From Opitutales bacterium (lineage in GTDB: Bacteria > Verrucomicrobiota > Verrucomicrobiia > Opitutales > Opitutaceae), in contig JBBRBC010000012.1 in assembly GCA_038206205.1 (NCBI GenBank), positions 2,518 through 66,517 of the forward strand: a stretch of DNA of 64,000 nucleotides, given 5' to 3'. Each line of letters opens with the position of its first letter. The first letter of the stretch is position 1. Below are positions 1 through 64,000 of the stretch, in pieces. The notes beneath the pieces were generated by a model. The model had not been told where the DNA came from, searched no databases, and was given only the letters and a program-made list of their open reading frames with translations. The position numbers and the translations under genes were made by a program.

Positions 1-165
1 GGGGCGCGGATTGAAACAAGGCAATTTGATTCTCGTAGGAAAGAGACGCCGCGCATCGCCCGAATCGTCCCCCCCCGTAGCGATTTCAAGAAACGTGAGG
101 CGGGAGGCGCGTTTTGTCTCTTGGTCTTTTAGTCTCTGAGCTCCCTTCAGGTCGCGTGGTGACAC

Positions 166-801: not shown

Positions 802-817
802 GGGTCGGGAGACCCGT

Positions 818-926
818 ACCCAAAACGTGCGCCGAAAAATCTTAGCCGGGATTTTTCAGTGGGTGGGTGTCGGTTTCCACACCGACACTCTGTCGCCGAG
901 GTGGAAATCGGCGACCCCCTTTCCAG
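818..926 (+). repeat. Structured intergenic repeat family R2, short form, copy 1
   Basis: Hairpin GTCGGTTTCCACACCGAC (869-886) followed by GTCGCCG-aggtggaaat-CGGCGAC. Alignable with 42061-42215, 43364-43500 and the reverse complement of 46935-47085. Confidence 0.8.
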
Positions 927-927
927 C

Positions 928-1983
928 TCAGTTGCCGGTCGGAAGCTCGAACCAAAAAATTGAACCGCCTTCAGGAGGAAATTCGGCGCCGACTTTGCCG
1001 CCTTGCAATTCGATCAGCTGCTTGACGATCGACAGGCCGAGCCCGGTGCTCTCTTCGCCGCCGGTGGGGCGAACGGAAAGTTTGGCGTATTCGGTGAAGA
1101 GGCTGGGGCGCTCTGCGGCGGGCACGCCTGGTCCGTCGTCTTGCACTTCGAGGCGGACGAATTTTCCGGCGGTGCTGGTCCGCACGAGAATCCGCTGGCC
1201 AGAGGAAAGGAATTTCACGGCATTGCTGACGTAATTGGTCAGCGCCTGATAGGCATGGCCGGCTTCCGTGCTGACGACGGGGAGGGTTTCGGCGGCTTGG
1301 AGGCTGAGACTGATGTTTTTGTTTTGGGCGGCGGGCTCGTTCTGGGCGACGACGGCTTGGGCCAGCACGTTTAGGTTTACGCGGCTGATGCCGGGTTTTT
1401 GCACATTGAGAAAAGTATCGATGATGCTCTGCATCTGTCGGGCGGAAAAATCGATATTTTCCAATTGCTCGGTGATCGCGGGTGGGGCGCCTTTACGGCG
1501 GGCTTGCGCTCCGGCCATTAAAATCAGGCAGAGTGGATTGCGCAGATCGTGGGCGGCGATGCGCATGAATTTTTGTTTGAGCGCCAATTCTTTTTCCAAT
1601 TCGCGCCGGAGCTGGCAGAGCGTGAGGTGGGTGTTGATGCGGGCGAGGGCTTCGGCGTGCTGGATGGGCTTGGTGATGTAGTCGACCGCGCCGGAGTTGA
1701 ACGCGCGCACTTTTTCCGAGGTGTCGGCGAGCGCGGTCATGAAGATCACCGGAATATCCCGGGTTTCAGCGGAGGCTTTGAAGCGGCGGCAGGTCTCGAA
1801 CCCGTCGATGCCAGGCATCATGACATCCAATAAAATCAGACTGGGTCGCGCGAGTTTGGTTTGAGAGAGGGCTTCTTCGCCATCTTCTGCGACCATCAGG
1901 GCGTAGCCGGCGGTAGATAGACATTCAGCCAGCACACTGAGGTTGGCGGGGGTATCATCGACGATCAAAATGGTGTCGGGCAT
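928..1983 (-). CDS. Hybrid response regulator / histidine kinase (REC-HisKA-HATPase)
   Basis: N-terminal receiver (ILIVDDTPANL ... DVMMPGIDG), H-box AAHDLRNPL, ATPase G-box GLGLSIVKQL. Its start lies 2 nt after the stop of the upstream kinase, so they likely form an operon. Confidence 0.85.
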   Translation of the reverse strand: MPDTILIVDDTPANLSVLAECLSTAGYALMVAEDGEEALSQTKLARPSLILLDVMMPGIDGFETCRRFKASAETRDIPVIFMTALADTSEKVRAFNSGAVDYITKPIQHAEALARINTHLTLCQLRRELEKELALKQKFMRIAAHDLRNPLCLILMAGAQARRKGAPPAITEQLENIDFSARQMQSIIDTFLNVQKPGISRVNLNVLAQAVVAQNEPAAQNKNISLSLQAAETLPVVSTEAGHAYQALTNYVSNAVKFLSSGQRILVRTSTAGKFVRLEVQDDGPGVPAAERPSLFTEYAKLSVRPTGGEESTGLGLSIVKQLIELQGGKVGAEFPPEGGSIFWFELPTGN

Positions 1984-1985
1984 GG

Positions 1986-4900
1986 TCAGTTCGAGGAAGG
2001 TGGCGTGCGATAGCGGGTCACGTAAATGCGGATCGCTTTCATGCGAAAGTGCGTGGCTAGTTCGATAATGTGGTCGGCGAAGTCGGCGTGTTCGGGCAGA
2101 CGGTGGGCGAGGTCTTGCGCATAGGCGCGGACCCCCAGCACATCGCCTTTGGTGGCCAAGTCAAAGATGGCATTGGCTTCCTCCACGGCCGGCGCATTGC
2201 GGAGAATCGGAAACGGATCCCGGGATTCCCCCCCATTTGCGCGTGCACTTGTTCGCCAGGTAATGCCGAGGTGGCGTTCGAGCAGTGTGAAAAGATCTTC
2301 TTCGAAAAATGGCTTGGAGAGAAACGCGGCGCAGCCGGCGGCGAGGGCTGCTTGTTGCGGACCTTCGAGTGTGCTGGCGGAAACGGCGATGATGCAGGGC
2401 GGGCGCGTCTGATAATGGCGGAGGATCGCTTGCGCGGCAGCCATGCCATCGAGACGGGGCATGCGCAGATCCATCAACACGATATCCGGGCGCTGTTTTC
2501 GCGCCAGATCGACGGCTTCCTGTCCATCGTGTGCCGCGAGTATTTCAAAGCCGAGGGGTTGTAGCAGGTCGATTAACACGGTGCGGTTCGGCGCATGATC
2601 ATCGGCGACGAGCACGTGGAGTCTGGGGCCTTCATAACCGATGACGCGACGGGTGACGTTGGGGGTGCGGTTGGCCAGCACGTCGCCGAGTACTTCCGGC
2701 AGGGAGATTTCAAACCAGAACCGTGCGCCCCAACCCAAGCGACTTTCTACGCGTAAGGTGCCGCCCATTTGGTCGACGATATTGCGACTGACGTTTAACC
2801 CGAGACCGGTGCCACCGGCGTGCTGGCTTTGTGCACCGACTTGGGAAAAAGGCTCGAAGAGCCGGGCTTGGTCTTCCGCCGAAATGCCCGGCCCCGTGTC
2901 GCTGATGGAGAAAAGAAACAAGTCGCCGGAGCGTTCGACCGTGAAAATCACCGCTCCTTGCAGGGTAAATTTCATGGCATTGCCCAACAAATTGAAAAGC
3001 ACCTGACGGAGACGTTGGGAGTCGCCCCAAACGATGCGGGGGAGGTCGGGCGCGATTGAGCTTTCGAGGCGCAGGTTCTTTTCCCGGGCCCGGGGCGAGA
3101 AAAACTCCACGGCGGCGTGCGCAAACTCCGGGAGGTTGAATTCCACGGCATGGAGTTCGAGTTTGCCGGCCTCGATTTTAGCGAGATCGAGCACATCATT
3201 GATCAAGGCTAGCAGATGCTCGGCGGATTGATGAATGACCTCCACGCCATCGCGCTGTTTCGCGCTCAGCGTCTGGTCGCGATCCAGAATTTGGGTGTAG
3301 CCCAAGATGCCATTGAGCGGGGTCCGCAATTCATGGCTCATGCTCGCGAGGAATTGCGATTTGGCGCGGTTGGCGGCATCCGCCACCTCCTTGGCCTGAT
3401 GCAGCGCCTGCGCGACTTCGCGTTTACTGGTGATGTCGGCCATGACGCCTTCGAAGTGCTGCAGGCTGCCATTGGCGTTGCGGATTACGCGGATGGATTC
3501 GGTTATCCAGGCGCGGGTGCCATCAGGGCGGATGATTTCCGACTCAAAATCGGTAACCACGTCCGAATCGTGGATGAGTTGGAGAAATTGCGTTCGGCGA
3601 TTATGATCGGCGTACCTCTGGTGGCTCGTGTCATGGGCGGCGGTGAGGAGGGTGGCGGGTGAGGCATAACCTAAAATGCGGGCTAGAGCGGGATTCGCGT
3701 GGATGAGCCGACCTTCGAGAGTGGAAACGTACAGTCCTTCCAAAGCGTTTTCGAAAATGCCGCGATATTGTCTTTCGGCCCGTTGCAAGGCTTCATCTGT
3801 TTCACGTCGGTGCACGGCGCTGGCCGCTTGACCGGCCACGAAGGTCAACAGGCGTTTTTCCTCATCACCATAGGCCTTGGCGTCATGGTAATCCTGGATC
3901 GCGATTACTCCGATGGCGCGACCATCAATGAGGAGTGGTACGCCCAGCCACAGAGGGGCGGGTTGATCGGTGAGTGCCGGGACGTGTTCTTTCGGCAAAA
4001 TGGCGATCTCCCCAGCGGTAGTCAGGAGTGGTTGGCCGCTTTGCAGCACGTATTCAACCAGGCCGAAGCCCAGCTTTCGGTCTTCCGGGGCTGGCAGTTT
4101 TTCGTCGACGAAATACGGGAAATGCAGCGTCGTCCCATCGGCACTGAGCAGGGCGACCGAAAAATTCTTCGCCGACATCAATTCCCCGATTGTCCGGTGA
4201 AGTTCCGCAAAGAGCACGGGCAATTCGGCGTCGGTCAGCAGGACTTGGGAAATTTGGTAGGTGGCGTCTTGCACTTGTTCCCGCCGGCGCCGCTCAGTTA
4301 TATTCATCCCGATGGTTAGCATGCAGGGAATGCCATTCACCTCGATGACCTCGGCACTGAGGAGCAGATGCAGGAAGGCTTTCATCTTGGTATGAAACCG
4401 TCCTTCGAAGTCTCGTACCCGGCCATTACGATGCATCAGGCTGATAAACCGGTCCCGTTGGAAAGTATCGGCCCACAGGCCTATTTCCAAGGTGCTGCGA
4501 CCGATGACTTCGGCACGGCTATAACCCGAATTGCTGACAAAGGCGGCATTGACTTCGATGATTTTCCCGTTGTCGAGCCGAGCCACAATCGCGACTACCG
4601 GGATGGTTTGCAATGACTTGGCGAAATACTCCTGGGATTCACGCTGACGGATTTCACTTTGTAGCCGCCGTACAGCGGCTACGGCTTGATCGGCGACGAA
4701 CAGGAGCAGGCGTTTTTCATCCTCACCATAGGCCTGTGGATTCTGGTAATCCATGACGGCGATCACGCCGATAGCCCGACCATCAAGGAGTAAAGGCACC
4801 GCGAGACTGGCAGCGGCCGGTATGGTCGTGGGATTGAATGAACCGGTACGCCCAAGAATATTACTCATCTCCTCGCTCCGCGCCAGCAAGGGCTGCCCAG

Positions 4901-8365: not shown

Positions 8366-8833
8366 ATGAACATCAAATCCAGTCTCTCCTCCGCCCGGTT
8401 TATTCCCGTGGCTTTGCTCGCTGTCGGTCTCTCCGCCCTCGCCCTTTCCGGCTGCTCCAAATCGGAGAGCGAAAAGGTCGGCGATAAAGCCAAAGACGCC
8501 TATCAGGACACCAAGACCGCCGTCGCCAATGCTTGGGGCGACGTCAAATCCTACACCTTCGAGAAACGCTCTGATTTCAGCGCGAGCGCCAAGGCCCTCA
8601 GGGCCAAGATGGATTCCCAAATGAGCGAACTGCACGCCAACTATTCCGAAGCCAAAGCCAGCGCCAGCCGCAAGGCCGCCATGGCCGAACTGAAGGATGC
8701 CGACGCCGACTACAAGGCGAAGCTCGATGCCCTCGGCAGCGCCACCGCCGACACGTGGGACAGCGCCAAGCAGAACGTGATTGCCTCGTGGGACAAGCTT
8801 CAGGCCAGCTACTACAAAGCGAAGGCTGAGTGA
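8366..8833 (+). CDS. Lipoprotein, helical/Lys-Ala-rich, unknown function
   Basis: ATG at 8366 gives MNIKSSLSSARFIPVALLAVGLSALALSGC, a signal peptide with an LSGC lipobox. An intrinsic terminator follows. Confidence 0.75.
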   Translation: MNIKSSLSSARFIPVALLAVGLSALALSGCSKSESEKVGDKAKDAYQDTKTAVANAWGDVKSYTFEKRSDFSASAKALRAKMDSQMSELHANYSEAKASASRKAAMAELKDADADYKAKLDALGSATADTWDSAKQNVIASWDKLQASYYKAKAE

Positions 8834-8869
8834 GTTTGGAAGAACCTCGTCGCTCAGGTTTTCTCTCGC

Positions 8870-8898
8870 AGACCGGAATAACTTTCCGGTCTTTTTTG
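8870..8898 (+). terminator. Rho-independent terminator
   Basis: AGACCGGAA-ataac-TTCCGGTCT stem followed by TTTTT. Confidence 0.8.
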
Positions 8899-9099
8899 TG
8901 CGTAAAACCAAGCCCGTCAGGCCCGGCGCTTGGGTTCTCGATAAACGAGGGGACCGAAGGCTTTTTCCCGCGTTGACCGGGCTTGGCGGACGGGTAGTTA
9001 AACCAGTTCCTGTTTAATGAACCGAGTTTATCTCAAAACCTCCCGCCTAGGCCTCGCGACTGCTGCCGCGACTCTTCGACGCGGCAAGGCGGGTGCCTC

Positions 9100-10494
9100 A
9101 TGAATCGTGTTTATATCAAAACCTACGGGTGCCAGATGAACGAGCGCGATAGCGAGGCCGTGGCGGCTTTGCTTCGCGCCCGGGGCTACCGCATGGTGGC
9201 GGATGAAAACGCGTGCGATGTCATGCTCTTGAACACCTGCTCGGTTCGCGATGCGGCCGAACAGAAGGCCATCGGCAAAGCGGCCAACGTTTCCCAGAAA
9301 CGGAAACGCAACCCGCGCTTCATCCTCGGCATCCTCGGCTGCATGGCACAAAACCGCGGGGCGGAACTCCTCGATGCGTTGCCGGATGTGGACTTGATCA
9401 TCGGCACCCAGAAATTCCACCAGGTGCCGGACTATCTCGACAATCTGCGCGCTGCGCAGGAAGCCGGTGCCCCGATCGGCAACACGATCATCGATATCGC
9501 GGAAGAAGCCGGTTCGCAAAACACCATCCGCGACCACGTGCTGGAAGAGCATCAAGTCACCGCTTTCGTTTCCATTCAACAGGGCTGCAACATGGATTGT
9601 GCGTTCTGCATCGTGCCGAAGACGCGCGGCGACGAACGTTCGCGGCCGATGGATGAAATCGTGCGCGAATGCGAGCAGCTCGCCGAACGCGGCGTACGCG
9701 AGATCACGCTCCTCGGCCAGATCGTCACCAGCTACGGCCGGCGTTCTGCTGGCCAGCAGAATGCACACCCCCATAAGTACTCTCCTTTCGTCCATTTACT
9801 GGAACGCGTGAACGCCCTTCCCGGAATCCGCCGCATCCGTTTCACTTCGCCGCATCCACGGGGTTTCAAGGACGACCTGATTCAGGCGTACGGTCGGCTC
9901 GAGAAACTCTGCGAATATGTCCACCTGCCCATGCAGTCGGGCAGCGACCGGATTCTCAAGGCGATGAACCGGCCTTACTCGCGTGATCGCTACAAACAGA
10001 TCGTCGACGACCTCCGCCGCGTGCGGCCCGACATGTATTTTTCCACCGATGTGATCGTCGGTTTTCCCGGTGAGACCGACGAAGATTTCTCGCAGACGCG
10101 CGAGCTGTTCGAAACCTGCAACTACGACATGGCGTACGTTTTCAAGTATTCCATCCGCACCGGCACGCCCGCGGCGACGCTGGAAGACCAGATCCCTGAT
10201 GACGTGAAGGAAGCACGCAACGAAACCCTCCTGAAAATTCTCGCCGCCAATTCCGACCGCCGGAACGCCACGCTACTCGGCACCACCCAGGAAGTGCTGG
10301 TGGAGGGGCCGGACAAGAAAGGCCGTGGTTTCATGGGCCGCACCCGGGGTAATCGCATCGTGCATTTCGAAGCGAACGAACGCCTCGTGGGCGAACTTGT
10401 CCCGGTCAAAATCGAACGCGCCTCGACCGCGGTGTTGTACGGCTCGCTGGTGTTGGCGGGAATCGCGGTAGAAAGTCCAGAGACCAGAGCTTAG
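9100..10494 (+). CDS. miaB: tRNA-i6A37 methylthiotransferase MiaB
   Basis: N-terminal YIKTYGCQMNERDSE, radical-SAM cluster motif CNMDCAFCIVP, C-terminal TRAM-like region, and typical length (464 aa). Confidence 0.93.
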   Translation: MNRVYIKTYGCQMNERDSEAVAALLRARGYRMVADENACDVMLLNTCSVRDAAEQKAIGKAANVSQKRKRNPRFILGILGCMAQNRGAELLDALPDVDLIIGTQKFHQVPDYLDNLRAAQEAGAPIGNTIIDIAEEAGSQNTIRDHVLEEHQVTAFVSIQQGCNMDCAFCIVPKTRGDERSRPMDEIVRECEQLAERGVREITLLGQIVTSYGRRSAGQQNAHPHKYSPFVHLLERVNALPGIRRIRFTSPHPRGFKDDLIQAYGRLEKLCEYVHLPMQSGSDRILKAMNRPYSRDRYKQIVDDLRRVRPDMYFSTDVIVGFPGETDEDFSQTRELFETCNYDMAYVFKYSIRTGTPAATLEDQIPDDVKEARNETLLKILAANSDRRNATLLGTTQEVLVEGPDKKGRGFMGRTRGNRIVHFEANERLVGELVPVKIERASTAVLYGSLVLAGIAVESPETRA

Positions 10495-11732: not shown

Positions 11733-12688
11733 GCGACTCGCTGGCCCCTTTAACGTTGGAAGAAACCTTGGCGGCGCTGACCCGCGCGAATGATGAAATG
11801 CCTCGGGCCGCGTTCGCCGCGGCCGAAACTCACCGCGCGGCGATCACGCCGGCATTGATCGCCAGTATCGAGGCGCTGACGATTGCTACCGCCAACAACA
11901 CGATTGATCCCGAAGATCAGCTGCCGATTTATGCGATGTATTTGGGCGCAGTCTGGCGGGAGAAAAAAATTCATGCACCCTTGCTGGCGTTCCTTTCCCT
12001 GCCAGGAGACCTCGCCCTGAATGCCACGGAAGATATTCTAACCGAACAGGGCGATAAGCTGCTGGCCCAGACTTGCGGAGGGGACTGGAGTGGCGTGACC
12101 CGGTTAGCGGAAAATTCCGAGGTCGACCTCTTTGTGCGCTGCGCGGCCCTGCGCGCGCTCGGCTTGCTCATGCATTGGGGCGAGATGCCCCGCGCCGTCC
12201 TACTCACGCGTTATCTAACACTGATTTCCACTTACCCTCGTCTACCGGACAAAGAAACCTCCAGCCATATCCTCGGTGAAATTGCCAACCTCACTATTGA
12301 TTTTGGATTGGTGGAATTACGCGAACCGTTGCTCGCTCTTTTCGATCAGGATTTAATCGACGAATTTATCGCCGGCCGCAGTGAAGTGGAAGAGCTGGGG
12401 ACGACGCCGTATATACCGGATGAGTTTTTGCCGATCACTGATGTCGCCGACGCGATTTCCTGGTGGGCTTGTTTCTCACCTGAGTGGGACGAAAACCTTG
12501 AGGAAGACGATCTGATGGACGAGGTCTTGGATGAACCGAGGCCGATCCCCCCAGCCGTGCCGTATTCCTATGAGCCGCAGGTGCCGTATCGTGCCCCGGT
12601 GAAGGTCGGCCGCAACGATCCCTGTCCGTGCGGCACCGGCAAGAAATTTAAAAAATGCTGCGGCGCCGCATTGCCTTTCGTTCCCTAA
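11729..12688 (+). CDS. DUF1186-like protein with C-terminal SEC-C metal-binding motif
   Basis: The ATG at 11729 overlaps the gmk stop (ATGA). The C-terminus [19 protein letters not shown] is a SEC-C Zn-binding motif. Confidence 0.75.
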
Positions 12689-12706
12689 TTTTCCTCGCTT
12701 CTCCTT

Positions 12707-13762
12707 ATGGCCAAATCTTCCCAGCCCACCTACCCCGTCGTACCCTTGCCAGTCTGGCGCGAGTTGCTCGATGCCGCGCTGGCGTTTCGCGCCGCGAAAC
12801 CGTGGGAGCGACGGCACGACAACGATCTCTTCGCGTTGATCGACGACCAGCAACGCCCGTGGTTTCCCTCGGTGCTTGGCGCGGCCGGGCAGGTTTTCGG
12901 CGTGGTGCTTTATCGCGGTGAAGCCGGCCTGCGTTTTCTTTTTGAAAATGTGCAGACCTTGCCAGGCAACGATCCCGATCTGGGTTTCCTGCAGGATGCG
13001 CTGATGCTGGACTGGGGCGCGAAGAAGGCCCTCGTGCCGGAGGAAATCGCCCTCCTCGCGCAACTCGGCTACACGCCCAAGCCACGGGAGCGTCAGGCTT
13101 GGCCATGCTTTCGGACGCATACGCCGGGGCTGTATCCTTGGTCGCTCAACGAAACGGAAGCTCGCGAACTCACGCTCGGCCTGCGCGCCACGCTGGCGTG
13201 CCTTCTTTTCGCAGACACGCGGCCGTATTTTTTTATGCCCGGCGAAGAACGCAGCGATTTGTTGCCCACCGTGCTGATGCGCGACGCACTCGCCGGACCC
13301 TTGCAGCCGGAGCAAGTCGAGTGGCGTCAGTGGCAATTGCCCGCGCCGGCCAGCCCGGCCAGTCCGCAACCGTCGCCCCGTTGGTTGGCCGAGCTCAAGG
13401 CGCTGCCCCAAGTGAAAGGCAGCCTGATGGAGTTCGATCAATTTTATATGTTCACTCCGATCTTGGAAGACGGGCGTCCGTATTTTCCGCGGATGGCCTT
13501 GGTCGTCGATGGCGGCACCGGTTTTATCTATGGCATGGAAACGGTTTCGCCCAAAACCTCTTGGGGCGACATCGTGCTGGCAGTCTGGAGCAAGGCGCTG
13601 CTCAGCGCCCGTGCGCGGCCGGAATTTATCGCCATCGGTCAGGGACCTTGGCTTTCCTCGCTCAAACCGCTCGCGTCAGCCCTCGGCATCAAGCTCCTGC
13701 TGAATGAAAAGCTGCCCTATATCGCCGAGGCTCGGGCCTCGTTGAGGCAATTTTCCCAATAA
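12707..13762 (+). CDS. Conserved hypothetical protein
   Basis: 351-aa ORF with non-repetitive, protein-like composition, co-directional with and 18 nt downstream of the SEC-C gene. I recognise no family. Confidence 0.6.
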   Translation: MAKSSQPTYPVVPLPVWRELLDAALAFRAAKPWERRHDNDLFALIDDQQRPWFPSVLGAAGQVFGVVLYRGEAGLRFLFENVQTLPGNDPDLGFLQDALMLDWGAKKALVPEEIALLAQLGYTPKPRERQAWPCFRTHTPGLYPWSLNETEARELTLGLRATLACLLFADTRPYFFMPGEERSDLLPTVLMRDALAGPLQPEQVEWRQWQLPAPASPASPQPSPRWLAELKALPQVKGSLMEFDQFYMFTPILEDGRPYFPRMALVVDGGTGFIYGMETVSPKTSWGDIVLAVWSKALLSARARPEFIAIGQGPWLSSLKPLASALGIKLLLNEKLPYIAEARASLRQFSQ

Positions 13763-13799
13763 GACGCTGAAGCGCTGCGGGAACGAACCGGCCGACACG

Positions 13800-14783
13800 A
13801 TGCGCTTGCCCTTTCCGATCACCGACCACTGCGACGGCCAACGATTTTTCAATCCCGATGGCGTGCAGGCGCGTTCGTTTGCGAATTTGCCGAAGTGGTG
13901 GTGGCAACGGTTGGTCTTGCGCCAGGGAGAACGTTGGCCGAAGTCGGTTCCGGCGGTGGCGCACGCGCTATTGCCAATCTTGGTTCCAACCGGACAAGTC
14001 GCAGTGACCTGGATTGGCCACGCCACGTGCCTGCTCCAATTTCCCCGCTTCACTCTGCTGACCGATCCGATTTTTTCTGAGCGCGCCAGTCCCGTTTCGT
14101 GGGCCGGACCCAAACGCGTGCGGCCACCCGCGCTGAGATTACACCAACTGCCCCGCATCGACGTCGTGCTGGTGAGTCACAATCATTACGACCATCTCGA
14201 CCTGTCCACGCTGCGATGGCTCGCGCGGGAGCATCAGCCTTTGATTGTCACCACGCTGGGCAACAAGGCGTGGTTGGAAAAACGCGGGGTGGGCAACGTG
14301 GTGGAGCTCGATTGGTGGCAAACGCACCGGGCCTCGGCCGATCTCGATGTGCTCTGTACGCCCGCCCATCATTTCGCCGCGCGCTGGCCCTGGGATCGTT
14401 GCCAAACACTTTGGGGCGGCTTCATGCTGCAAACGGCGGATCAGTTGATTTTCTTCGCTGGAGATACCGGTTGGGGCTCCCATTTCGCCATGATTCGCCG
14501 GCTGCTCGGCGCGCCGGATCTCGCGTTGTTGCCCATCGGAGCATACGAGCCGCGCTGGTTTCTTGAGCCCGTGCACATGAATCCCGATGAAGCCGTGCGC
14601 GCTCATCTCGCCCTTGGTGCGCGCCAAAGCATCGGCATGCACTACGGCACCTTTCAACTCACCAATGAAGCGATCGACGCGCCATTGCACGATCTGGCCA
14701 AGGCTCGAATTGAACACGGTTTGGTCGCACGGGTTTTCCCAGCTGCACAAACCGGCGAGACCTTTGCCGTGTCGTTGGCTTAG
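13800..14783 (+). CDS. MBL-fold metallo-hydrolase (NAPE-PLD-like subgroup)
   Basis: Metallo-beta-lactamase motif VLVSHNHYDHLD, plus later conserved His/Asp positions (TPAHHF, FFAGDTG, GMHYGTF). Confidence 0.8.
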   Translation: MRLPFPITDHCDGQRFFNPDGVQARSFANLPKWWWQRLVLRQGERWPKSVPAVAHALLPILVPTGQVAVTWIGHATCLLQFPRFTLLTDPIFSERASPVSWAGPKRVRPPALRLHQLPRIDVVLVSHNHYDHLDLSTLRWLAREHQPLIVTTLGNKAWLEKRGVGNVVELDWWQTHRASADLDVLCTPAHHFAARWPWDRCQTLWGGFMLQTADQLIFFAGDTGWGSHFAMIRRLLGAPDLALLPIGAYEPRWFLEPVHMNPDEAVRAHLALGARQSIGMHYGTFQLTNEAIDAPLHDLAKARIEHGLVARVFPAAQTGETFAVSLA

Positions 14784-55917: not shown

Positions 55918-57642
55918 TCACAAGCACTTGTCGGTCACGGCGCCTTCGGAGGCGGTGCTGACGAGCTTGGCGTACTTGGCGAGAACGCCGCGGGTCTCGC
56001 GGGGCGGGAGCGGTTTATACGCCGCCATTCGCGCCGCATAATCTGTGTCGGGAATTAGGAGACTGATCGTGTTTTTCACGGCGTCGATTTCGATCAGGTC
56101 GCCATGGCGCACGATGCCGATCGGGCCGCCTCGCGCTGCTTCGGGTGTGATGTGGCCGACGTCGAAGCCGTGGCTGCCGCCGGAGAAACGGCCATCGGTG
56201 ATGAGTGCCACTTCCTTGATGAGCCCGCGACCGGCGACCGCGCTGGTGGGTGAAAGCATTTCGCGCATACCGGGACCGCCGACCGGTCCTTCGTTGCGGA
56301 TGACCACGACATCACCTTTGACGACGTCGCCCCGGAGGATGCCTTTCAGCGCGTCCTCTTCGCTTTCATAAACTTTGGCGGTGCCTTTGAAGTAGAGTCC
56401 TTCCTTGCCGGTGATTTTGCCCACGGCACCAGCGGGAGCCAAGTTGCCGTGGAGGATGCGGAGATGGGTTTCCTTTTTGATCGGTTGGTCCCACGGGCGA
56501 ATGATGTCCTGTTGATCAGGGTAAGACGGATAGGGCTGCACGTCTTTGAGGGATTCGGCCATTGTCTCGCCGGTGACGGTGAGGCATTCGCCGTGGAGCA
56601 GGCCGCGATCGAGGAGCAGCTTCATCATCGGGCGGATACCGCCGACGCGGATGAGGTGGCTCATGCCGTATTTGCCAAAGGGCTTCACATCGGCGAGGAG
56701 GGGGATTTTTTCGCCGATGATTTTGAAATCTTCGAGGGAAAGCGGGACTTCGGCCGAGTGCGCGATGGCCAGCAGGTGGAGAATGAGGTTTGTGGAGCCG
56801 CCGAGAGCGAGGCAAACCATGATGGCGTTTTCGAAAGCGTGGCGCGTGAGGATATCGCGCGGCTTGGTGCCTTGGCGCAGCATGGCCATCACGGCGGCAC
56901 CCGCGCGCTGACAGTCCTGGCGCTTGGCTTCGCTGATGGCGAGTTGGGCGCTGCTGTTGGGGAGACTCATGCCGAGGGCCTCGATGGCGCTGGCCATGGT
57001 GTTGGCCGTGTACATGCCGCCGCAGGAACCGGGTCCGGGGATGGCGTTGGCCTCGACTTCGCGCAAGCCGGCATCGTCGAGTTCCCCTTTCGCGTGTTTA
57101 CCGACTGCTTCGAAAACCGAAACGATATCGAGCGGCGTTTTGTGATCGCAGTCACCGGGGGTGAAGCCGGGAAGTATGGTGCCGCCGTAAATGAACACGG
57201 CGGGGCGGTTCAGGCGCGCGATGGCGATCATGGCGCCCGGCATGTTTTTATCGCAGCCCCCGATCGCGATCAGACCATCGAAACCTTCGGCGGCCACGGC
57301 GGTCTCGATGGAATCGGCGATGACATCGCGCGAGACGAGACTGTAGCGCATGCCTTGCGTGCCCATGCTGATGCCATCGGTGACGGTGATGGTGTTGAAA
57401 TAAACCGCTTTGCCGCCAGCGGCGTTGACGCCCTTGCGCGCGTGCTCGCTGAGGTCGCCGAGATGGACGTTGCACGGCGTCATGTCGCTGGGTGAAGAGG
57501 CGACGGCGATCTGGGGTTTCTTAAAATCGTCGTCCGTGAAGCCCACGGCGCGCAACATGGACCGGGCCGGGGCGCGGTCGTGGCCGTCAACGACGACGGA
57601 GGAATGGGGACGGGGCGTGACGTTCGAAGGAAGGGAGCACAT
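55918..57642 (-). CDS. ilvD: Dihydroxy-acid dehydratase
   Basis: AIGGCDKNMPGA, the Fe-S ligand context and a typical IlvD C-terminus (TDGRFSGG). I prefer the start at ATG 57642. Confidence 0.93.
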   Translation of the reverse strand: MCSLPSNVTPRPHSSVVVDGHDRAPARSMLRAVGFTDDDFKKPQIAVASSPSDMTPCNVHLGDLSEHARKGVNAAGGKAVYFNTITVTDGISMGTQGMRYSLVSRDVIADSIETAVAAEGFDGLIAIGGCDKNMPGAMIAIARLNRPAVFIYGGTILPGFTPGDCDHKTPLDIVSVFEAVGKHAKGELDDAGLREVEANAIPGPGSCGGMYTANTMASAIEALGMSLPNSSAQLAISEAKRQDCQRAGAAVMAMLRQGTKPRDILTRHAFENAIMVCLALGGSTNLILHLLAIAHSAEVPLSLEDFKIIGEKIPLLADVKPFGKYGMSHLIRVGGIRPMMKLLLDRGLLHGECLTVTGETMAESLKDVQPYPSYPDQQDIIRPWDQPIKKETHLRILHGNLAPAGAVGKITGKEGLYFKGTAKVYESEEDALKGILRGDVVKGDVVVIRNEGPVGGPGMREMLSPTSAVAGRGLIKEVALITDGRFSGGSHGFDVGHITPEAARGGPIGIVRHGDLIEIDAVKNTISLLIPDTDYAARMAAYKPLPPRETRGVLAKYAKLVSTASEGAVTDKCL

Positions 57643-57785
57643 GGGAGGATGAGCAGTAGAGAGAAAAGCGGGGCCCGGCGGCAAGGGGAGATTTGCGGGG
57701 GGGCTGGAGCCTGCATTTCAAAGTCAGGCCGCTTCGCCGCGCGATGCGCTAAACCGCTTCGACCAACCGCGCCTGATCATCGGGC

Positions 57786-57870
57786 TTAGGGTAGGGGCCG
57801 TTGCCCGCAACGGTCTGGCAGGATGTGGTCCACGGTATCATTGGCGGTTGAGGGCAACCGCCGCTATCTT
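57786..57870 (+). repeat. Paired-hairpin repeat family R3, copy 2
   Basis: GGGGCCGTTGCCCGCAACGG ... GGCGGTTGAGGGCAACCGCCGCTATCTTT aligns with the reverse complement of 19738-19820. Confidence 0.8.
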
Positions 57871-58732
57871 TGGGGTTCGGTGAAGGCAAAAAAACAGTCA
57901 ATCAATCAAGCGTGACGTGTCAGGGTTTCGCGGGCGTGGGTTGGGCCGGCGTGAGAGAAAGCAAAATATTGCCCGGGGTGGTCGGGGCGTTTTCCCGCAT
58001 GGTGATTAAAGCGGCATCGATTATTTTCGCGGCAGCGGAGGAAAACCGCGCTACGGAAAACCATTCCGCCACGCAGCCAACGCGCCGGCTTCATCAGATG
58101 GGACAAGGCATTATTAAACATCGAATCAGTCTCAGTCATCCTGCTTCCGAAGAATCAGGGTGAGCTCAACTCCGCCGCGAAGCGGATTAAAATTAACGCG
58201 GAGGCGGCGAAGCTTGATGTGATGGCGCTCCGCGTTGTGCGGGGCCGGGTCGTTTTCATTGGTGGAGATTCGTGCTTCGGAGGAAAACCGAGGTTCGTTC
58301 TCTGAAGTTTTGCCTCCGAATCACGAATTGACGAAGGAAGGCCTGATGCCGAACGGTCTCCGGATTAAGACCCAGCGCTGGGGTTCGGAGATTTTTTGCG
58401 CGTTGATTGGCGTGATTCGCGGGCCAACCCGAGTGCGTTGAGGTCAACTCCCTCCACCTTTTCTTATCCAGTGCTTAGCGCCTGCTCGGTCGCAAACCCT
58501 GAGCTGGCCGAAGGGGGCTCAGATGATTAACTCGCCACCCTTTCCGCACGGGCTGGACTCAGGATGTCTAAGCAGAAGCTGACCTCAGGGCTGGCCAAGT
58601 CACGGATAGATTGTATTTTTATCAGTTGTTAAATATTTGTGGAGCAACTGTTAGCAATTAGTAATTGAGATGATTTATTCGGCATTCACCGCCTTCTCTC
58701 TGATCGATCAGCTTGGTTGAATTGGAGGAAAT

Positions 58733-58822
58733 GTGTTTATAGAGAATTTCTTGCCGAACTTTGAACGTTTCGGCTGCCAGTGCGTCTTACCCTGTGTAGT
58801 TCAATGGTTAGTTTGGTGTTAG
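58733..58822 (+). CDS. Candidate 29-aa Cys-rich hydrophobic micro-protein
   Basis: GGAGG at 58724-58728, GTG at 58733, encoding (M)FIENFLPNFERFGCQCVLPCVVQWLVWC. A terminator hairpin follows at 58834-58862. It lies in the AT-rich leader upstream of the protease/exosortase cluster. Speculative. Confidence 0.25.
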   Translation: MFIENFLPNFERFGCQCVLPCVVQWLVWC

Positions 58823-58833
58823 TTAGGGTAGTG

Positions 58834-58862
58834 AAGCCGCTCAGGGGTGAGCGGCTTTTCTG
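58834..58862 (+). terminator. Intrinsic terminator-like hairpin
   Basis: AAGCCGCTCA-gggg-TGAGCGGCTT followed by TTCTG (short U-tract). Confidence 0.5.
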
Positions 58863-59053
58863 CGTCTAGACACGAAGATTTGCAGTGAACGTCGTCGGCT
58901 GCGTTTCTGGAAGATTGCAGTTTATAGAGTTCACCTGGAATTCACCCAGCTCACTTGTCATGATTGCAGGAAAATCAGATGAATACACGGGTGCTATCCA
59001 TGCGCCTATTCAGTAAATTGATTGCTTTTGTTCTGCTATATAAAGCTGGAAGG

Positions 59054-59971
59054 ATGGAGTTAAGCAAATGGGGCCGACGCATGATGCTGATCGCTGTCCT
59101 CGTTGCCGGGTCGTCATCACCAGTTCATGCGATCATTTTTTATTCCACCGCTGATGCGAACTATAACACGACCGCACCCACCGGCCTGCTCGCTGATAGC
59201 GGTTGGCAATGGGTCGGACATTGGGGCGGTTTTCAAGGCGTGCCGATCGGTCCGCATCATTTCATCACGGCGCGCCATGTGGGTGGCGCGGTGGGCGAGG
59301 CGTTTGTGCTGAACGGCGTTTCCTGCACGACCACGGCATTTTTTGATGACACCGCGAGCGATCTGCGAATCTGGCAAGTGAGCGGCACTTTCCCCTCGTG
59401 GGCTCCGCTTTATCGGGCGAATAATGAAGTGGGTCGCAAACTCGTTGTTTTCGGTCGCGGTCTGACTCGGGGAGCGGAGGTTCGTGACGTCGCCACGCAC
59501 ACGCTGCGTGGCTGGCAATGGGGCGCGGGCGATGGTCGAATGCGCTGGGGGCAGAATGGCGTCGTCGCGGTGGTTGATCGCGGCGCTTATTGGGGCGCGT
59601 TGCTCTATGCGGTTTTTAATCCGACGGGCGGGAGCAATGTCGCCCATCTCGCTCAAGGGGATTCCAGTGGTCCGGTTTTCATGAACGATGGGTCCGGCTG
59701 GAAACTGGCCGGGGTGGCGGCAGTCGTGGACGCGGCGTTTAATACCACGGACAAAGGGGAAGGTTTCAACGCGGCCCTCTTCGAGCTGCGTGGTCTCTAT
59801 GTCGGCAACAGCAGCAAATGGACTCCGATCTCGGGTGCGAAGCCAGTGCTGAGTGGGTTTTACGCCTCACGGATTTCGGTGCACCTAGATTGGATCGAAA
59901 GCGTGTTGGCGCAGGAAAGTCCCGTCCTTGCCCGCCAAACCTTGCCTTCATCGGTTGCTCCTTTGCCGTGA
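59054..59971 (+). CDS. Secreted trypsin-like (S1/chymotrypsin-fold) serine protease, paralog 1
   Basis: Signal peptide MELSKWGRRMMLIAVLVAGSSSPVHA. Candidate triad H (ITARHVGG), D (ASDLRIW), S (GDSSGPVF). Alternative upstream starts at 58979 and 58964. Confidence 0.8.
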   Translation: MELSKWGRRMMLIAVLVAGSSSPVHAIIFYSTADANYNTTAPTGLLADSGWQWVGHWGGFQGVPIGPHHFITARHVGGAVGEAFVLNGVSCTTTAFFDDTASDLRIWQVSGTFPSWAPLYRANNEVGRKLVVFGRGLTRGAEVRDVATHTLRGWQWGAGDGRMRWGQNGVVAVVDRGAYWGALLYAVFNPTGGSNVAHLAQGDSSGPVFMNDGSGWKLAGVAAVVDAAFNTTDKGEGFNAALFELRGLYVGNSSKWTPISGAKPVLSGFYASRISVHLDWIESVLAQESPVLARQTLPSSVAPLP

Positions 59972-60417
59972 TAGTGTTGGTGACCGGCAAGGTTCTGCCA
60001 CCTACCTGATGCACGGCTGTCGGGCAATCGTTGCGTGATTGAAACGTGGATTTCACGCAGGCCCACTTGCCAGAATAGTTGGGGGCTTTTCTCTTCGGGC
60101 GTGCAAGCAACACCTCCTGCTCGTAACGCAGGCCGAGATTTCTTTTCTTCGGCAAAATTGACGGCCAAAATTGACCCCGTGCCTATTCTGGGTACGGGCC
60201 TGTTCCCGCGGCCACAGTGGCCCAAGCGCACCACTTGGGTGCGTAGCTTTGGCCCGACCCTCGCCCAGCCCTACACGCGTATTCAGCGCGTGGGCTGATG
60301 GGGCCAAACCCGTCTTGGCCGACACATGAGTGGCCTGACAATTCTGCCTTCAAAGTGCGTTTCCCAGGTCGAGTCCAATTTAGGAATGCCGGCATCAGGC
60401 GTAGCCGGAGTGACGTA

Positions 60418-60458
60418 GTCCAGAGTCGAGAGCTGAGAGCTCGATCCTCAGAGCTGGT
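60418..60458 (+). repeat. Heptanucleotide-periodic array abutting the protease-2 start
   Basis: GTCCAGA GTCGAGA GCTGAGA GCTCGAT CCTCAGA GCTGGT, then ATG (60459). An opposed partial array CAACTCT CAGCTCT GGACTGC lies at 60514-60534, inside the N-terminal coding region. Confidence 0.8.
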
Positions 60459-61545
60459 ATGCGTGATTTTGTGACGGGAAACTGTATTTACTGTATGGTC
60501 GGGCTCGAGACGCTCAACTCTCAGCTCTGGACTGCATCGTTCCGGCTGAAGCTACCTAGTCGTGCGCTCCTCGTGGTGTTATTTTTCGTCGGGTCATTCT
60601 CATCGCTGCAGGCGATGATTTTTTATTCCACGGCCGATCCGAATTACAACACCACGGCACCGACCGGAATGTTGGCTAACAGCGGCTGGCAATGGGTGGG
60701 CGTGTGGCGGGGGCTTTCAGGGCGTGCCGATCGGACCCAAACATTTTATCGCCGCCCGCCACATCGGCGGAACCGTGGGCGATCCATTCATTCTCAATGG
60801 CGTCACCTACACCACGGTCGCGGTGTTTGACAACACCCTGAGCGATCTGCGCATCTGGCAAATCAGCGGAACTTTTCCTTCGTGGGCACCGCTCTACCGG
60901 ACGGGTATTGAAGCGGGCAAGCCACTGATCGTCTTCGGCCGAGGGCTGACCCGGGGCACCGAGGTGCGCGATGCCGCCACCAACACGCTCCGCGGTTGGC
61001 AGTGGGGTGTGGGCGATGGCTTATTGCGGTGGGGCCAAAACACGGTCGCTGCGGTGGTGAACGGGGGTTCGTATTGGGGTGCCCTTTTGAATGCCACGTT
61101 GGATGCGTCGGGTGGAATCAACGAGGCGCACCTCGCGGTGGGCGACTCAAGCGGGCCGGTCTTCCTCGACGACGGTTCGGGCTGGAAGCTCGCCGGGGTC
61201 GCGGCGGCCGTTGATGCGTATTTTAATACCACAAACTTAGGCGCAGGTTTCAACGCGGCGATCTTTGACGCACGCGGACTCTATTCTGGCAGCAGTGGCA
61301 GTTGGAATTTGGTCGGCGGAACTTCTCCGGTGCCCAGTGGATTCTACGCGACCCGCATATCGGTTCGTGCCGCGTGGATCGATGGAGTGGTTCCTCCGGT
61401 CGTGGCCAGTCAGCCGACCAGCGTTCCGGTGATGTCTCCGGCCTGGTCTCTCCTGCTGGTGGCGCTGCTGTTCGGCAGCGGGGTTGTGTTTGCGCGTCCG
61501 TGCCGGTCGGACGATCAAGCCAAAGAGCTGGATACGCTATTGTAA
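60459..61545 (+). pseudogene. Trypsin-like serine protease, paralog 2, with C-terminal sorting-signal-like tail; interrupted by a +1 frameshift near 60708
   Basis: The N-terminal ORF (60459-60830) and the main ORF (60724-61545) each align with paralog 1 on either side of GWQWVGVW|GGFQGVPIG. Removing one base at about 60708 restores the frame. The tail is VPVMSPAWS + LLLVALLFGSGVVF + ARPCR. It could also be a sequencing error. Confidence 0.7.
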
Positions 61546-61638
61546 CAATCGGAACCTTGCTTGGCCGAGAGATTCTTCGCGACGCTGCTTTGCTGCCGCA
61601 GGCCAGAGCTGTAGACGCAAAATAAATCTCTTCTTTGC

Positions 61639-62352
61639 ATGATGCGAAAACGTCGTCCTCGTAAACCCGCTGATTCCGACGCCCGGCCAGCCGGCGGTAT
61701 AATATCCGCAGGATCCGATCATGACCGGGCTTGGTGGAGCATGTCGGCCAGGGCCGCCGGAAATCGACCGGTGTTGTGCTTTATCTTCACCTTTAGCGGG
61801 GCTTTGGGCCTGTACTTTTTGTTGACGCTCAGTCTGCGCATGCCGGACGAGGGGTATGCGAGCAAACATCCGCTCGTGGCGCGGCTGGTGGCTGTGAATG
61901 AATGGACCCAAGATCACGTCTTCCGGCCATATCAACGGCTGATCGCCAGCGCTTCCTCTGGGACAGTGAATTTGTTCGGTTACCACACGACGGTTGATGA
62001 GCGCGAGATTCGTTCGGCCCAATTCGCAGTGACCGTCACCAACGGATGCGACGGCATCGAACTTTCCCTCCTACTTGCAGCGGCCATTGTGGTGTTCCCG
62101 GCGTCCGCTCGTCGGAAAATGGCCGGACTTGCCGCCGGCTTGGTCCTCATCGCGCTGCTAAATTATCTGCGCGTGGTCAGTCTCTGGCTTATCGGGGTGC
62201 ATTGGCGCGCGGGTTTTGATCTCGTCCATTACAATCTCTGGCCGCTGCTGCTCATCTGCGTTGTTCTCCTCTTTTTTGTTTCCTGGCTGAAGCATGCCAC
62301 GTCGGTCCTCACCGATTTAACGGAGCCGGCCGATGGAGCTGCGCAAAGCTAG
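61639..62352 (+). CDS. Exosortase/archaeosortase-family transpeptidase (minimal form)
   Basis: Multi-TM protein with the family's three hallmark residues in order: Cys in VTNGCDGIEL, Arg in LLNYLRVVSL, His in FDLVHYNLWP. Confidence 0.7.
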   Translation: MMRKRRPRKPADSDARPAGGIISAGSDHDRAWWSMSARAAGNRPVLCFIFTFSGALGLYFLLTLSLRMPDEGYASKHPLVARLVAVNEWTQDHVFRPYQRLIASASSGTVNLFGYHTTVDEREIRSAQFAVTVTNGCDGIELSLLLAAAIVVFPASARRKMAGLAAGLVLIALLNYLRVVSLWLIGVHWRAGFDLVHYNLWPLLLICVVLLFFVSWLKHATSVLTDLTEPADGAAQS

Positions 62353-62453
62353 ACCGGCACCATGCTCGCGATGAAACCAAGGCGGGGCCGGCCCGGTGCA
62401 GAGGGAAGTATCGTCAGAAAAAACCTGCGGCGCGCCTCGCGATCGGTCCGCGT

Positions 62454-63086
62454 TTGATCTGGCCCTTCATCGGTCGGCTCATCGGCTGGTATCTCGGGCT
62501 CCTGTTGCTCTGGTTGCCGTTGGGCCACCTCTACCGGGCAGGATTGATTGGAGCCGGCAATCTGACCTTGGGAAAAATTTTGCCTGGAAAGGAAATTCTT
62601 TTTCAGCATCACACCCAAGAGAAGGCGCTCGGTATCACCGAAGGGGTGGACCTCGTTGTGTTAGTCCGAACCGATGACATGTATGATCGCGACCACCACA
62701 AACAATACGTGTTGGCGAAACCGGTGATCACTTTCTATCAGCCCTACACGGCGGCGGCATTTCTTGGCGCACTGTTTTTGGCCGGTCGGCCGCGTTGGCG
62801 AACGCGTTTGCTCAAGGGTGTGCCTGCGATGGCCGGGCTGCATTGCTTGATGCTCGTCTGCGTTCTGGTCGAGGTGAACTACACCATCGGCCTGCACCTG
62901 CCTGCTGCGTCAAGCCAGGGACCGTGGGTGAAGACTGCGTGCCAGTTGTTGCATTCGTCGGTCACGGACTGGTCGGCCGGGGTGTTTTTGGTCCCGTTGA
63001 TACTTTGGACGCTGTCCAATTGGCCCGCGCGACGGTCCGGTGGCACGGCGGAAAAACAGCAGACGCTCCAAGAGGATCAGCGGTAA
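62454..63086 (+). CDS. Multi-pass membrane protein, candidate exosortase-associated partner
   Basis: 210 aa, TTG start, 4-5 hydrophobic helices, co-directional and 100 nt downstream of the exosortase-family gene. Confidence 0.55.
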   Translation: MIWPFIGRLIGWYLGLLLLWLPLGHLYRAGLIGAGNLTLGKILPGKEILFQHHTQEKALGITEGVDLVVLVRTDDMYDRDHHKQYVLAKPVITFYQPYTAAAFLGALFLAGRPRWRTRLLKGVPAMAGLHCLMLVCVLVEVNYTIGLHLPAASSQGPWVKTACQLLHSSVTDWSAGVFLVPLILWTLSNWPARRSGGTAEKQQTLQEDQR

Positions 63087-63313: not shown

Positions 63314-64000
63314 TCACGGAGTGGTTTCATAGTTTGTCCGGGTGGCGCTTTGCAGCAGGAGCTGGTCGTTGAAGGAGAGATAGGTCGCGTCTTCCGCCAT
63401 CACGGAGACGAGTGTGCCGGCGACAATTTTCACATAACAAGCGCGCGCGTCGGTCGTCAGTCGGCCAAATTCGGCGGCATTGAACGTGAGTGATCCGCCA
63501 GCAGAATTCAGTGACGCCAGCTCTATCCCTGCATTGGTGTTGATCAACACGGCGGCCGTCCCGGGTTGATCCAGCAAGATCCTGATGCCCTGCGCCAGGG
63601 TCGTTTCATCGCCCACCCGGACATGGGGAAATAGCACCTGCACAAACTGGAGCCGTTGCCCCGGACTGACGTCGCCCGTCCAGGCGTAGCGGGTTTTTTT
63701 CATCGGACCCTGGCCCGAAGGACCATCGGGAATGTCTTCCACCGTCATCGCCGCGCCCTCTTTGTTGCCGTAATAGATGAGCAGGTCCATCGGCGGAACC
63801 GTGTAGCGCAGGACATTTTGGAAGGAGTGCGTCTCAAACCAAGTGTTCACCCAATTATTCCCGCTGGCCTCACTCACGTTCTGGGTATTCCAAACCGGAC
63901 CCACGGTTGCCCGGAAGGAGTCGTTGAAAACGGTTTCGTCGCGCACGAGTACGAAACGATTTTTCACCAGCAGAAATTCCCGCGTTTGGGTCGCCTCGTA
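63314..64000 (-). CDS. Hypothetical protein, C-terminal part (open to the window edge); possibly heparinase II/III-like beta-sandwich
   Basis: The frame stays open from 63967 to 64000, so the gene starts outside the window. NRFVLVRDETVF weakly resembles the C-terminal domain of heparinase II/III-like lyases. Confidence 0.45.
   Translation of the reverse strand, partial: YEATQTREFLLVKNRFVLVRDETVFNDSFRATVGPVWNTQNVSEASGNNWVNTWFETHSFQNVLRYTVPPMDLLIYYGNKEGAAMTVEDIPDGPSGQGPMKKTRYAWTGDVSPGQRLQFVQVLFPHVRVGDETTLAQGIRILLDQPGTAAVLINTNAGIELASLNSAGGSLTFNAAEFGRLTTDARACYVKIVAGTLVSVMAEDATYLSFNDQLLLQSATRTNYETTP

Follow-up and report, generated by a model that had tools for sequence, protein, structure and literature searches.

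The 64,000-nucleotide stretch of Opitutales bacterium DNA analysed here (contig JBBRBC010000012.1, positions 2,518 to 66,517; hereafter the window) contains at 58600-63086 four open reading frames (ORFs), all on the + strand, which encode two related secreted serine protease homologs (paralogs 1 and 2), an exosortase H (XrtH) and a fourth, membrane protein (P4). Judging from sequence comparisons and a fold model, the locus is likely to be a dedicated exosortase H sorting cassette, the cargo of which is a chymotrypsin-fold serine protease. This reading draws on family and fold assignments, residues invariant among homologs, gene linkage and the co-variation of the C-terminal tail of the protease with XrtH and P4; cleavage, anchoring, surface location and protease activity are predicted on that basis. 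The four co-directional genes behind an AT-rich leader described in the original prediction were found again by the ORF scan and as a dip in GC content. All four genes are real, but it had been overlooked that paralog 2 is split and the fourth ORF truncated by frameshifts.

Exosortase H, the probable sorting tail and the putative partner protein

The product of 61639-62352 (+) scored 102.6 bits with the exosortase H model TIGR04177 (curated cut-off 86), 47.3 bits with TIGR04178 (cut-off 23) and 33.8 bits with PF09721 (cut-off 25.7), which confirmed its earlier identification as an exosortase. The next-best exosortase subfamily, XrtM, reached 72.8 bits against a cut-off of 125. Sister XrtH sequences scored 82.5, 88.8 and 94.1 bits with TIGR04177 and thus straddle its cut-off, so the clade lies at the edge of the curated XrtH family. 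The Cys, Arg and His residues of the motifs NGCDG, NYLRV and LVHYN (at 62047, 62170 and 62227, respectively), already noted as hallmarks, proved to be invariant, together with an Asn, in 24 homologs down to 26% identity (C103, N141, R144 and H163 in the 203-aa numbering). Cys, Arg and His form the suspected catalytic triad of exosortases (Haft, bioRxiv 10.1101/2023.06.07.544157). The start of the gene is ambiguous: 61639 gives a protein of 237 aa, whereas the gene callers applied to relatives take 61741, which gives 203 aa. In a simple Kyte-Doolittle scan, used for all transmembrane layouts in this study, XrtH showed a single transmembrane segment at the N-terminus, then a loop of ~75 residues and three more segments; the Cys and His lie at the ends of helices and the Arg inside the third segment. 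The link between exosortase H and IPTLxxWG-CTERM proteins, which the original prediction had named, is real, since the JGI name of the 62%-identical homolog P0140 is 'exosortase H (IPTLxxWG-CTERM-specific)'. A word-indexed protein search returned 12 matches for XrtH and two for P4, and a sequence search of the PDB found no solved structure matching either protein.

Paralog 2, and not paralog 1, ends in the tail VPVMSPAWS-LLLVALLFGSGVVF-ARPCR (61423-61506, +), just as had been predicted. The tail consists of the signature VPVMSPAW, a transmembrane helix (61450-61491) and the basic cluster ARPCR, and a tail of this three-part design was found in approximately 92 of 120 homologs, so the motif recurs widely outside the window. 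The majority of the signatures belong to the class D[AVT]PL[LF]S and a minority, which includes the window, to the class VP.[LMF]..(.)W, exemplified by VPVMSPAW, VPSMSPAW, VPALSTAW, VPGMNSW and VPATPVW. The spacing of the last two is exactly that of IPTLSEW. The resemblance to IPTLxxWG-CTERM tails noted earlier therefore holds for the layout of the motif, as judged by eye, and this type of tail recurs in homologs, but the corresponding model TIGR04174 does not recognize it. The same was true of nine further tails of the VP..W class, none of which matched TIGR04174 at E ≤ 10. The idea that the TIGR04174 matches within the family come from VP..W tails was rejected, as none was found among these nine tails and the window tail; consequently, the five family members that do match must belong to the DxPLLS class. 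The VP..W tails scanned gave just weak GPS-CTERM matches or a match to midcut-by-XrtH. When the window tail alone was compared with 18,950 NCBIfam models, its sole match was midcut-by-XrtH, NF033207 (E 0.079, 13 bits, cut-off 45). A PEP motif is absent from the window tail, and the PEP-CTERM model TIGR02595 matched one of the 120 members (E 0.31).

A sorting signal can be recognized by homologs elsewhere that are without it or bear another signal in its place (Haft, bioRxiv 10.1101/2023.06.07.544157). Both situations were encountered here. Tail-less clades exist, and protease homologs of less than 50% identity end either in a canonical PEP-CTERM tail (VPEP, helix and RRR) or in unrelated C-terminal domains. 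The succession of signature motif, transmembrane helix and C-terminal basic cluster is also the three-part layout described in that study.

The protease, XrtH and P4 genes stay together in other genomes. A scan with the protease profile, taking one genome per species, yielded 71 loci, nearly all of them from Verrucomicrobiota (Opitutaceae, Chthoniobacterales, Limisphaerales and others) and a few from Planctomycetota. Using iterated hidden Markov models (HMMs), XrtH and P4 were found, always paired, directly beside the tailed protease in 12 loci other than the window. When all ORFs lying up to 7 kb from XrtH in the resulting 13 linked loci were clustered all against all, the protease, XrtH and P4 were the only conserved families; the other neighbours differ. 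Additional conserved 'families' turned out to be shadow ORFs inside the three genes, and a glycosyl- or lipid-transferase was sought in the cassette at the 13 loci and not found. Searches starting from XrtH (the metagenome scan from this side used sequences of subfamily A, defined below) recovered the same cassette in L080, L078, L084, L085, L087 and the contig of P0141. The contigs L079 and L083 end too early to show linkage to a protease, and in L086 there is no protease within 3 kb of a fragmented XrtH/P4 pair. Protease loci below 50% identity never had XrtH within 10 kb. In dedicated systems the genes for the enzyme and its target regularly follow one another, and adjacency is taken as evidence of pairing (Haft, bioRxiv 10.1101/2023.06.07.544157). 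This arrangement was seen in the 12 genome loci and the six contigs listed above, with locus L021 as a possible exception, so that the linkage in relatives, proposed earlier as a check, is kept.

The strongest evidence in this study on what XrtH and P4 recognize comes from the co-variation of the tail with these two proteins. XrtH and P4 each fall into two subfamilies, of which subfamily A (the window, L009, L017, L078, L080 and P0141) always occurs with VP..-type tails and subfamily B (ten loci) always with DxPLLS tails. The catalytic domains of the window protease and of its homolog at L008, a class B locus, are 80% identical, but the L008 XrtH and P4 gave 105 and ~17 bits, respectively, with those of the window. 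In contrast, the catalytic domains at the class A loci L078 and L017 are 58-62% identical to that of the window, whereas XrtH reached 144-156 bits and P4 114-143 bits. Moreover, a neighbour-joining tree of the catalytic domains does not separate the two tail classes, whose members are interleaved. This interleaving and the mismatch with cargo similarity indicate that the tail, XrtH and P4 move as a set irrespective of the cargo domain, and since the co-variation tracks the tail and not the protease, it is not merely due to shared descent of the whole locus. At the level of sequence, it argues for the tail as the element which XrtH and P4 recognize. P4 diverges between the tail classes more than XrtH does, which would fit a role in recognition.

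Cleavage of the tail is a step that we infer, and the curated IPTL-CTERM model passes over the window tail; both points would suit a tail that acts as a permanent membrane anchor, with XrtH and P4 adjacent for some other reason, e.g. co-regulation or different substrates. We consider this explanation very unlikely, because the tail has the full three-part design of a sorting signal and gives way to PEP-CTERM in distant homologs, because the XrtH/P4 subfamilies follow the tail class instead of the protease phylogeny, and because the genes adjoin one another wherever XrtH is intact and the flanking sequence is long enough, L021 being a possible exception.

At L008, an unrelated protein encoded upstream of the cassette (5'-nucleotidase C-terminal domain, CBM96 and MBG_3) ends in DVPLMPWW followed by a helix and RKR. 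Such a tail can thus be carried by other proteins, and the pairing of XrtH with a single target may not be strict. An XrtH which is not dedicated at all, processing instead a wider, genome-wide set of proteins with the same class of tail among which the protease is the commonest linked member, seems rather improbable, even though the curated XrtH-linked models for a separate domain (IPTL_CTERM) and for a substrate family (midcut-by-XrtH) point in the same direction as the L008 protein. That protein was the sole other bearer of a tail of this class in the 64-kb window and in ~20 kb around the 12 linked loci, and the three-gene module is kept in varied genomic settings.

Other sorting signals occur close to the cassette. 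PEP-CTERM proteins are encoded beside it in L009, L014, L016 and L020, where the protease retains its XrtH-type tail, and the distinct tails on neighbouring proteins mean that PEP-CTERM and XrtH-type signals are distinct within one genome. The PEP-CTERM genes (IPEP, helix and RRR) lie at 8687-9835, 12267-13931 and 14293-14736 in L016, 5361-6188 in L014, 10948-11475 in L009 and 2107-2844 in L020, which hints that surface-protein genes of different sorting systems are co-located. The MBG_3 domain (PF18887) of the tail-bearing L008 protein (1-3642) was also detected between the protease domain and the tail in nine of the 120 homologs; carriers include P0079 and P0080 as well as the proteins encoded at 9908-11413 in L017 and 4753-5979 in L078. 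This suggests that MBG_3 is a stalk or spacer module common to XrtH-type cargos.

The fourth gene (62454-63086, +) encodes a four-transmembrane protein which is N-terminally truncated in the window (210 aa vs 241 aa in relatives). An exhaustive protein search supplied 17 P4 representatives, and the family was extended by iterating HMMs over the fetched loci. The intact ortholog scored 13.8 bits with NF041730, 'exosortase H-associated membrane protein' (cut-off 35). This was the top family for 8 of 26 P4 homologs; other top families were heimdallarchaeosortase (four), XrtH (three) and XrtX (two), none at its cut-off. From these profile matches we take P4 to be a diverged representative of the XrtH partners known as 'XrtH-associated membrane protein'. 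P4 and XrtH have the same 1+3 transmembrane layout, i.e. one segment, a loop and three segments. An hhalign comparison of the two families gave a probability of 81.5%, E 1e-5 and a score of 44.2 over 75 columns corresponding to the last three helices, while reversed profiles scored 14-16 and 20 column-shuffled profiles 8-16. Within the aligned region, the column of the XrtH Arg is occupied by a hydrophobic residue in P4, and if the register is extrapolated a few residues upstream, a Tyr (FYQPY) would stand at the position of the XrtH Cys. P4 is probably a non-catalytic exosortase paralog. We put forward only tentatively, as possible though on the whole unlikely, the broader idea that P4 and the XrtH-associated family are exosortase paralogs devoid of catalytic activity that form a two-subunit sortase with XrtH, in which P4 would provide signal recognition, and that VP..W and DxPLLS sets have been exchanged between cargos. 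If true, such exchanges between closely related cargos would amount to a natural specificity-swap experiment.

Several results weigh against the interpretation of the locus as an exosortase H cassette with a protease cargo. The window tail gave no match to TIGR04174 IPTL_CTERM at E ≤ 10, and this model matched just 5 of the 120 family members, weakly (best E 7e-4). The proteases of the window matched no Pfam (at E ≤ 1) or NCBIfam family, and neither did its 210-aa P4; with NF041730, the best relative of P4 reached E 1.8e-5 and another E 6.5e-5 (22.7 bits), all below the cut-off of 35. The tailed homolog at L021 has no XrtH in the ~1 kb downstream and 2 kb upstream of it that are present on its 4-kb contig. 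Two of the four cassette genes are frameshifted in the window, and their differences from relatives are mostly non-synonymous, in small counts. Finally, a literature search yielded no experimental work on XrtH.

On the favoured reading of the locus, paralog 2 would be exported by the Sec system and cut by signal peptidase just before (V/I/M)IFYST, and the protease would be held in the inner membrane by the C-terminal signal (VPVMSPAW, helix and basic cluster). XrtH, the putative four-helix membrane Cys/Arg/His enzyme, would then cleave at or near the signature, removing the helix and the basic tail, and would probably transfer the protease to an anchor, which would bring it to the cell surface. 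P4, as the predicted non-catalytic exosortase-like partner, would probably aid signal-specific recognition. Paralog 1, the conserved tail-less sister, might be a form that is set free, not anchored, or a partner that associates with the anchored paralog 2. The S-layer protein of Methylomirabilis carries an IPTL-CTERM domain (PMC8671808) and was the only published IPTL-CTERM protein found in our literature search; by analogy, it fits a surface destination.

The protease family and its two paralogs

Paralog 1 (58979-59971, +; the ORF opens at 58964) is a tail-less secreted homolog of chymotrypsin-fold serine proteases and is 99% identical to P0001 (330 aa). It shares 67% identity over 297 residues with paralog 2 (E 3e-144), and the N-terminal motif as well as the contexts ARH(V/I)GG, SDLRIWQ and GDSSGP are present in both, which bears out the earlier description of two paralogs with common motifs. 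The triad codons are located at 59276 (H), 59360 (D) and 59663 (S) in paralog 1 and at 60760, 60844 and 61147 in paralog 2. The family comprises at least 784 proteins (E ≤ 1e-3), and wherever a source gives one of them a name, it is 'hypothetical protein'.

The assignment of the paralogs to the S1-type proteases, made earlier from short motifs, is now backed by the fold. An AlphaFold model of P0018, the intact ortholog of paralog 2, built on the alignment of 120 members, had a mean pLDDT of 87.7 (~98 through the core). Foldseek compared this model with the PDB and returned 1049 matches at E ≤ 1e-3; the best 50 of the 1049 were all S1 proteases with a probability of 1.0 and a TM-score of 0.53-0.63 on the target, and the matches listed include granzyme M, chymotrypsin, elastase and tryptase. 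Residues H101, D129 and S230 (P0018 numbering) are invariant across the 120 homologs, the paralog 1 clade included. Sequence comparison alone gave weaker signals. The commonest Pfam matches in the family were Trypsin_2 in 23 of 120 members (best E 4.7e-4) and Trypsin in 12 of 120 (best E 1.3e-4), and the window proteases matched PDB sequences at E 0.03-0.1, mostly chymotrypsin and elastase around GDSGGP, with which the GDSSGP of the window proteases aligns. The modelled fold and the invariant triad support the classification of both paralogs as S1-type serine proteases with predicted activity.

The mature N-termini are predicted at IIFYST from 59132 in paralog 1 and at MIFYSTADPNYNTTAPTG from 60615 in paralog 2. 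In the alignments, the residue preceding (V/I/M)IFYST is nearly always Ala, which in turn follows a hydrophobic stretch, and for this reason the conserved motif is probably the mature N-terminus produced by signal peptidase. The signal-peptide cut that would expose (V/I)IFYST might act as a trypsin-style activation step.

Paralog 1 is truly without a tail and falls into a clade of tail-less proteins in the neighbour-joining tree, some members of which have a different C-terminal extension. Members of this clade adjoin the cassette in L011, L012 and L080, and a tail-less paralog adjoins it in L084 and L085 too (outside the tree). This recurrence, together with the strict protease-XrtH linkage in the clade to which the cassette belongs, might be expected if the protease were a component of the sorting machinery, e.g. 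a maturation protease for XrtH substrates, and not its cargo. We find this hardly probable. In many lineages this catalytic domain is joined to a PEP-CTERM tail or another C-terminal domain at loci that have no XrtH close by, and so it behaves as modular cargo; the tail, for its part, is located on the protease itself. The role of cargo thus remains our preferred assignment.

The C-termini of the family vary further. In many of the distant homologs L027-L064 (e.g. L028, L032, L034, L037, L040, L042, L055, L057, L062 and L063), the tail is replaced by a domain of ~80-100 residues with a conserved ...RFYRL... or by dockerin-like repeats, DVNGDGxVNxxD. A tail-less sub-lineage (P0002, P0003, P0006, P0009, P0029, P0046 and the copy at 7476-9134 in L007) carries a C-terminal extension of ~100 residues, for which no Pfam match was found when P0002 was scanned. 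It ends in ...RDRD..RV..CCPVPGR in P0002, P0003, P0006 and P0046, and P0009, P0029 and the L007 copy run on past RDRDNLRKE.CLPQP.

Frameshifts in the cassette of the window

In the window, a +1 frameshift divides paralog 2 into a 5' fragment at 60459-60830 (+), which encodes the signal peptide and the mature N-terminus and is in frame to ~60707 only, and a 3' fragment at 60724-61545 (+), which encodes the bulk of the catalytic domain, as placed by the fold model of P0018, and the tail. The frameshift is caused by an extra C at 60708 within what is a run of seven G in relatives; its removal restores the reading frame WGGFQGVPIGP, which matches paralog 1. Five metagenome or metagenome-assembled-genome contigs (L002-L006), 98.8-99.1% identical to the window, have the G7 run and an intact paralog 2 of 361 aa, the length of P0018. 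Programmed frameshifting at 60708 was rejected, since these relatives read the same protein in a single frame. Similarly, the fourth gene encodes 241 aa in L002-L006 and starts 10 nt past the XrtH stop, whereas the window has A6 at 62418-62423 in place of A7, so that its P4 lacks the first 31 codons, which persist as an out-of-frame remnant (62362-62453, +). From the TTG start at 62454, P4 retains all four transmembrane segments. Both indels recur in L001, a Logan re-assembly made independently from run SRR19962013 that matches the window base for base; they are thus present in the reads and not artefacts of a single assembler.

With frameshifts in both paralog 2 and P4, the cassette may have lost some or all of its activity in this genome. 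This concerns its function here and not the kind of system it represents. The stronger alternative, that the cassette is decaying, with real frameshifts, no anchored protease made and only XrtH and paralog 1 intact, is a serious possibility, though we think it somewhat less probable than the contrary. Both indels are absent from the five ~99% identical contigs and reproduced in the re-assembly, but they fall in seven-base homopolymer runs, which are typical sites of sequencing errors. The codon differences from relatives, counted as non-synonymous to synonymous, are 9:3 in paralog 2 and 8:0 in P4 as opposed to 0:2 in XrtH, and this excess hints at relaxed constraint in the two affected genes. 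The counts are too few for significance, however, and five of the eight changes in P4 lie within its N-terminal 31 codons, which are restored only in the repaired frame. The persistence of the four P4 segments and the intact XrtH and paralog 1 also speak against decay, whereas the fragmented cassette of L086 supports it. In that locus the XrtH/P4 pair (71-1700) is broken into several ORFs and is, besides the window, a second apparently degraded cassette.

Known sorting systems and the surroundings of the cassette

The architecture described here is not categorically new, since dedicated one-to-one sortase/target cassettes are an already recognized category (Haft, bioRxiv 10.1101/2023.06.07.544157). 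The original prediction of an unusual compact sorting system is supported as regards the dedicated cassette and overstated how unusual it is. It is largely an exosortase H system with a new cargo family. It resembles the exosortase H/IPTLxxWG-CTERM system in that the window enzyme passes TIGR04177, a membrane partner with NF041730 as its best family is encoded directly downstream, the window tail has the layout [IV]P.[LM]..(.)W followed by a transmembrane helix and Arg, and the sole NCBIfam match of this tail is midcut-by-XrtH NF033207. It differs in that TIGR04174 does not recognize the window tail, the partner scores under the NF041730 cut-off, the cargo is an unnamed protease family, and a second XrtH/P4 subfamily goes with a second, commoner signature, D[AVT]PL[LF]S. 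The hosts differ as well, being nearly all Verrucomicrobiota here, whereas canonical XrtH is mainly betaproteobacterial.

The PEP-CTERM/XrtA system employs the same enzyme superfamily and the same logic of a three-part signal, and distant homologs of the protease bear true PEP-CTERM tails. In contrast to that system, the window tail lacks a PEP motif, the small four-transmembrane enzyme belongs to a three-gene cassette with its target, and genomes with the cassette also encode PEP-CTERM proteins, whose tails are distinct. In XrtA-type systems one enzyme serves many targets, and the genes often reside in EPS loci (Haft, bioRxiv 10.1101/2023.06.07.544157). The dedicated system of a JDVT-CTERM protein and an adjacent intramembrane protease, from the same source, likewise has the enzyme and its target encoded by adjacent genes; however, the enzyme there is a Rce1-like glutamic protease and here an exosortase-type Cys enzyme, the signal here has no invariant Cys, and an extra exosortase-like partner is present. 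With the S1/clan PA proteases the cargo shares the fold, the His-Asp-Ser order, the GDSxGP motif and a hydrophobic mature N-terminus starting at the predicted signal-peptide cut. It is distinguished from them by sequence similarity at the detection limit (relatives reach only E ~1e-4), by its own N-terminal segment IFYSTxDPxYNTTAPTG and by the C-terminal sorting tail.

According to our literature search, XrtH is known only from curated HMMs. The cassette offers a minimal tractable case for it, comprising a small enzyme, one partner and a single cargo whose predicted activity is easy to assay. Signal, enzyme and partner come in two natural sets on nearly identical cargos, PEP-CTERM versions of the cargo can serve as controls, and close relatives carry intact versions of the cassette. 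These features make questions about exosortases testable: the cut site, transpeptidase action, the anchor and the reading of the signal. The analysis also provides a fold and a probable function for the protease family, a nameless set of 'hypothetical proteins' with at least 784 members, most of them verrucomicrobial, and suggests that the partner protein of XrtH is a pseudo-exosortase.

The cassette is preceded by an AT-richer intergenic leader (58500-58978) 5' of paralog 1, with a GC content of 0.468-0.504 across windows 58250-59249 compared with ~0.58-0.63 on the flanks. The leader is part of a gap of ~1.3 kb without a called gene (57685-58963) which follows the upstream neighbour at 55918-57684 on the − strand, a dihydroxy-acid dehydratase gene, ilvD (Pfam ILVD_EDD on the L002-L006 orthologs). 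A 14-nt indel distinguishes the gap from near-identical contigs at ~58383, and a hairpin followed by a T-run was seen, by eye only, at ~58834-58862. The spacer between the paralogs (59972-60458, 490 nt) has a 7-nt indel cluster relative to relatives at ~60412-60415. A regulatory RNA in the leader or in this spacer was considered and rejected, because the only Rfam match was CRISPR-DR61 (E 0.43, under the gathering score) and none overlapped the spacer; promoter and terminator scans gave background level only. Downstream, a convergent ORF (63314-64000, −) has no Pfam match and is 799 aa long in relatives; it is not kept with the cassette in other species. Beyond it, a gene for 127 aa is present in L003-L006, followed by an SLT-domain gene in L003-L005, L006 ending before that point.

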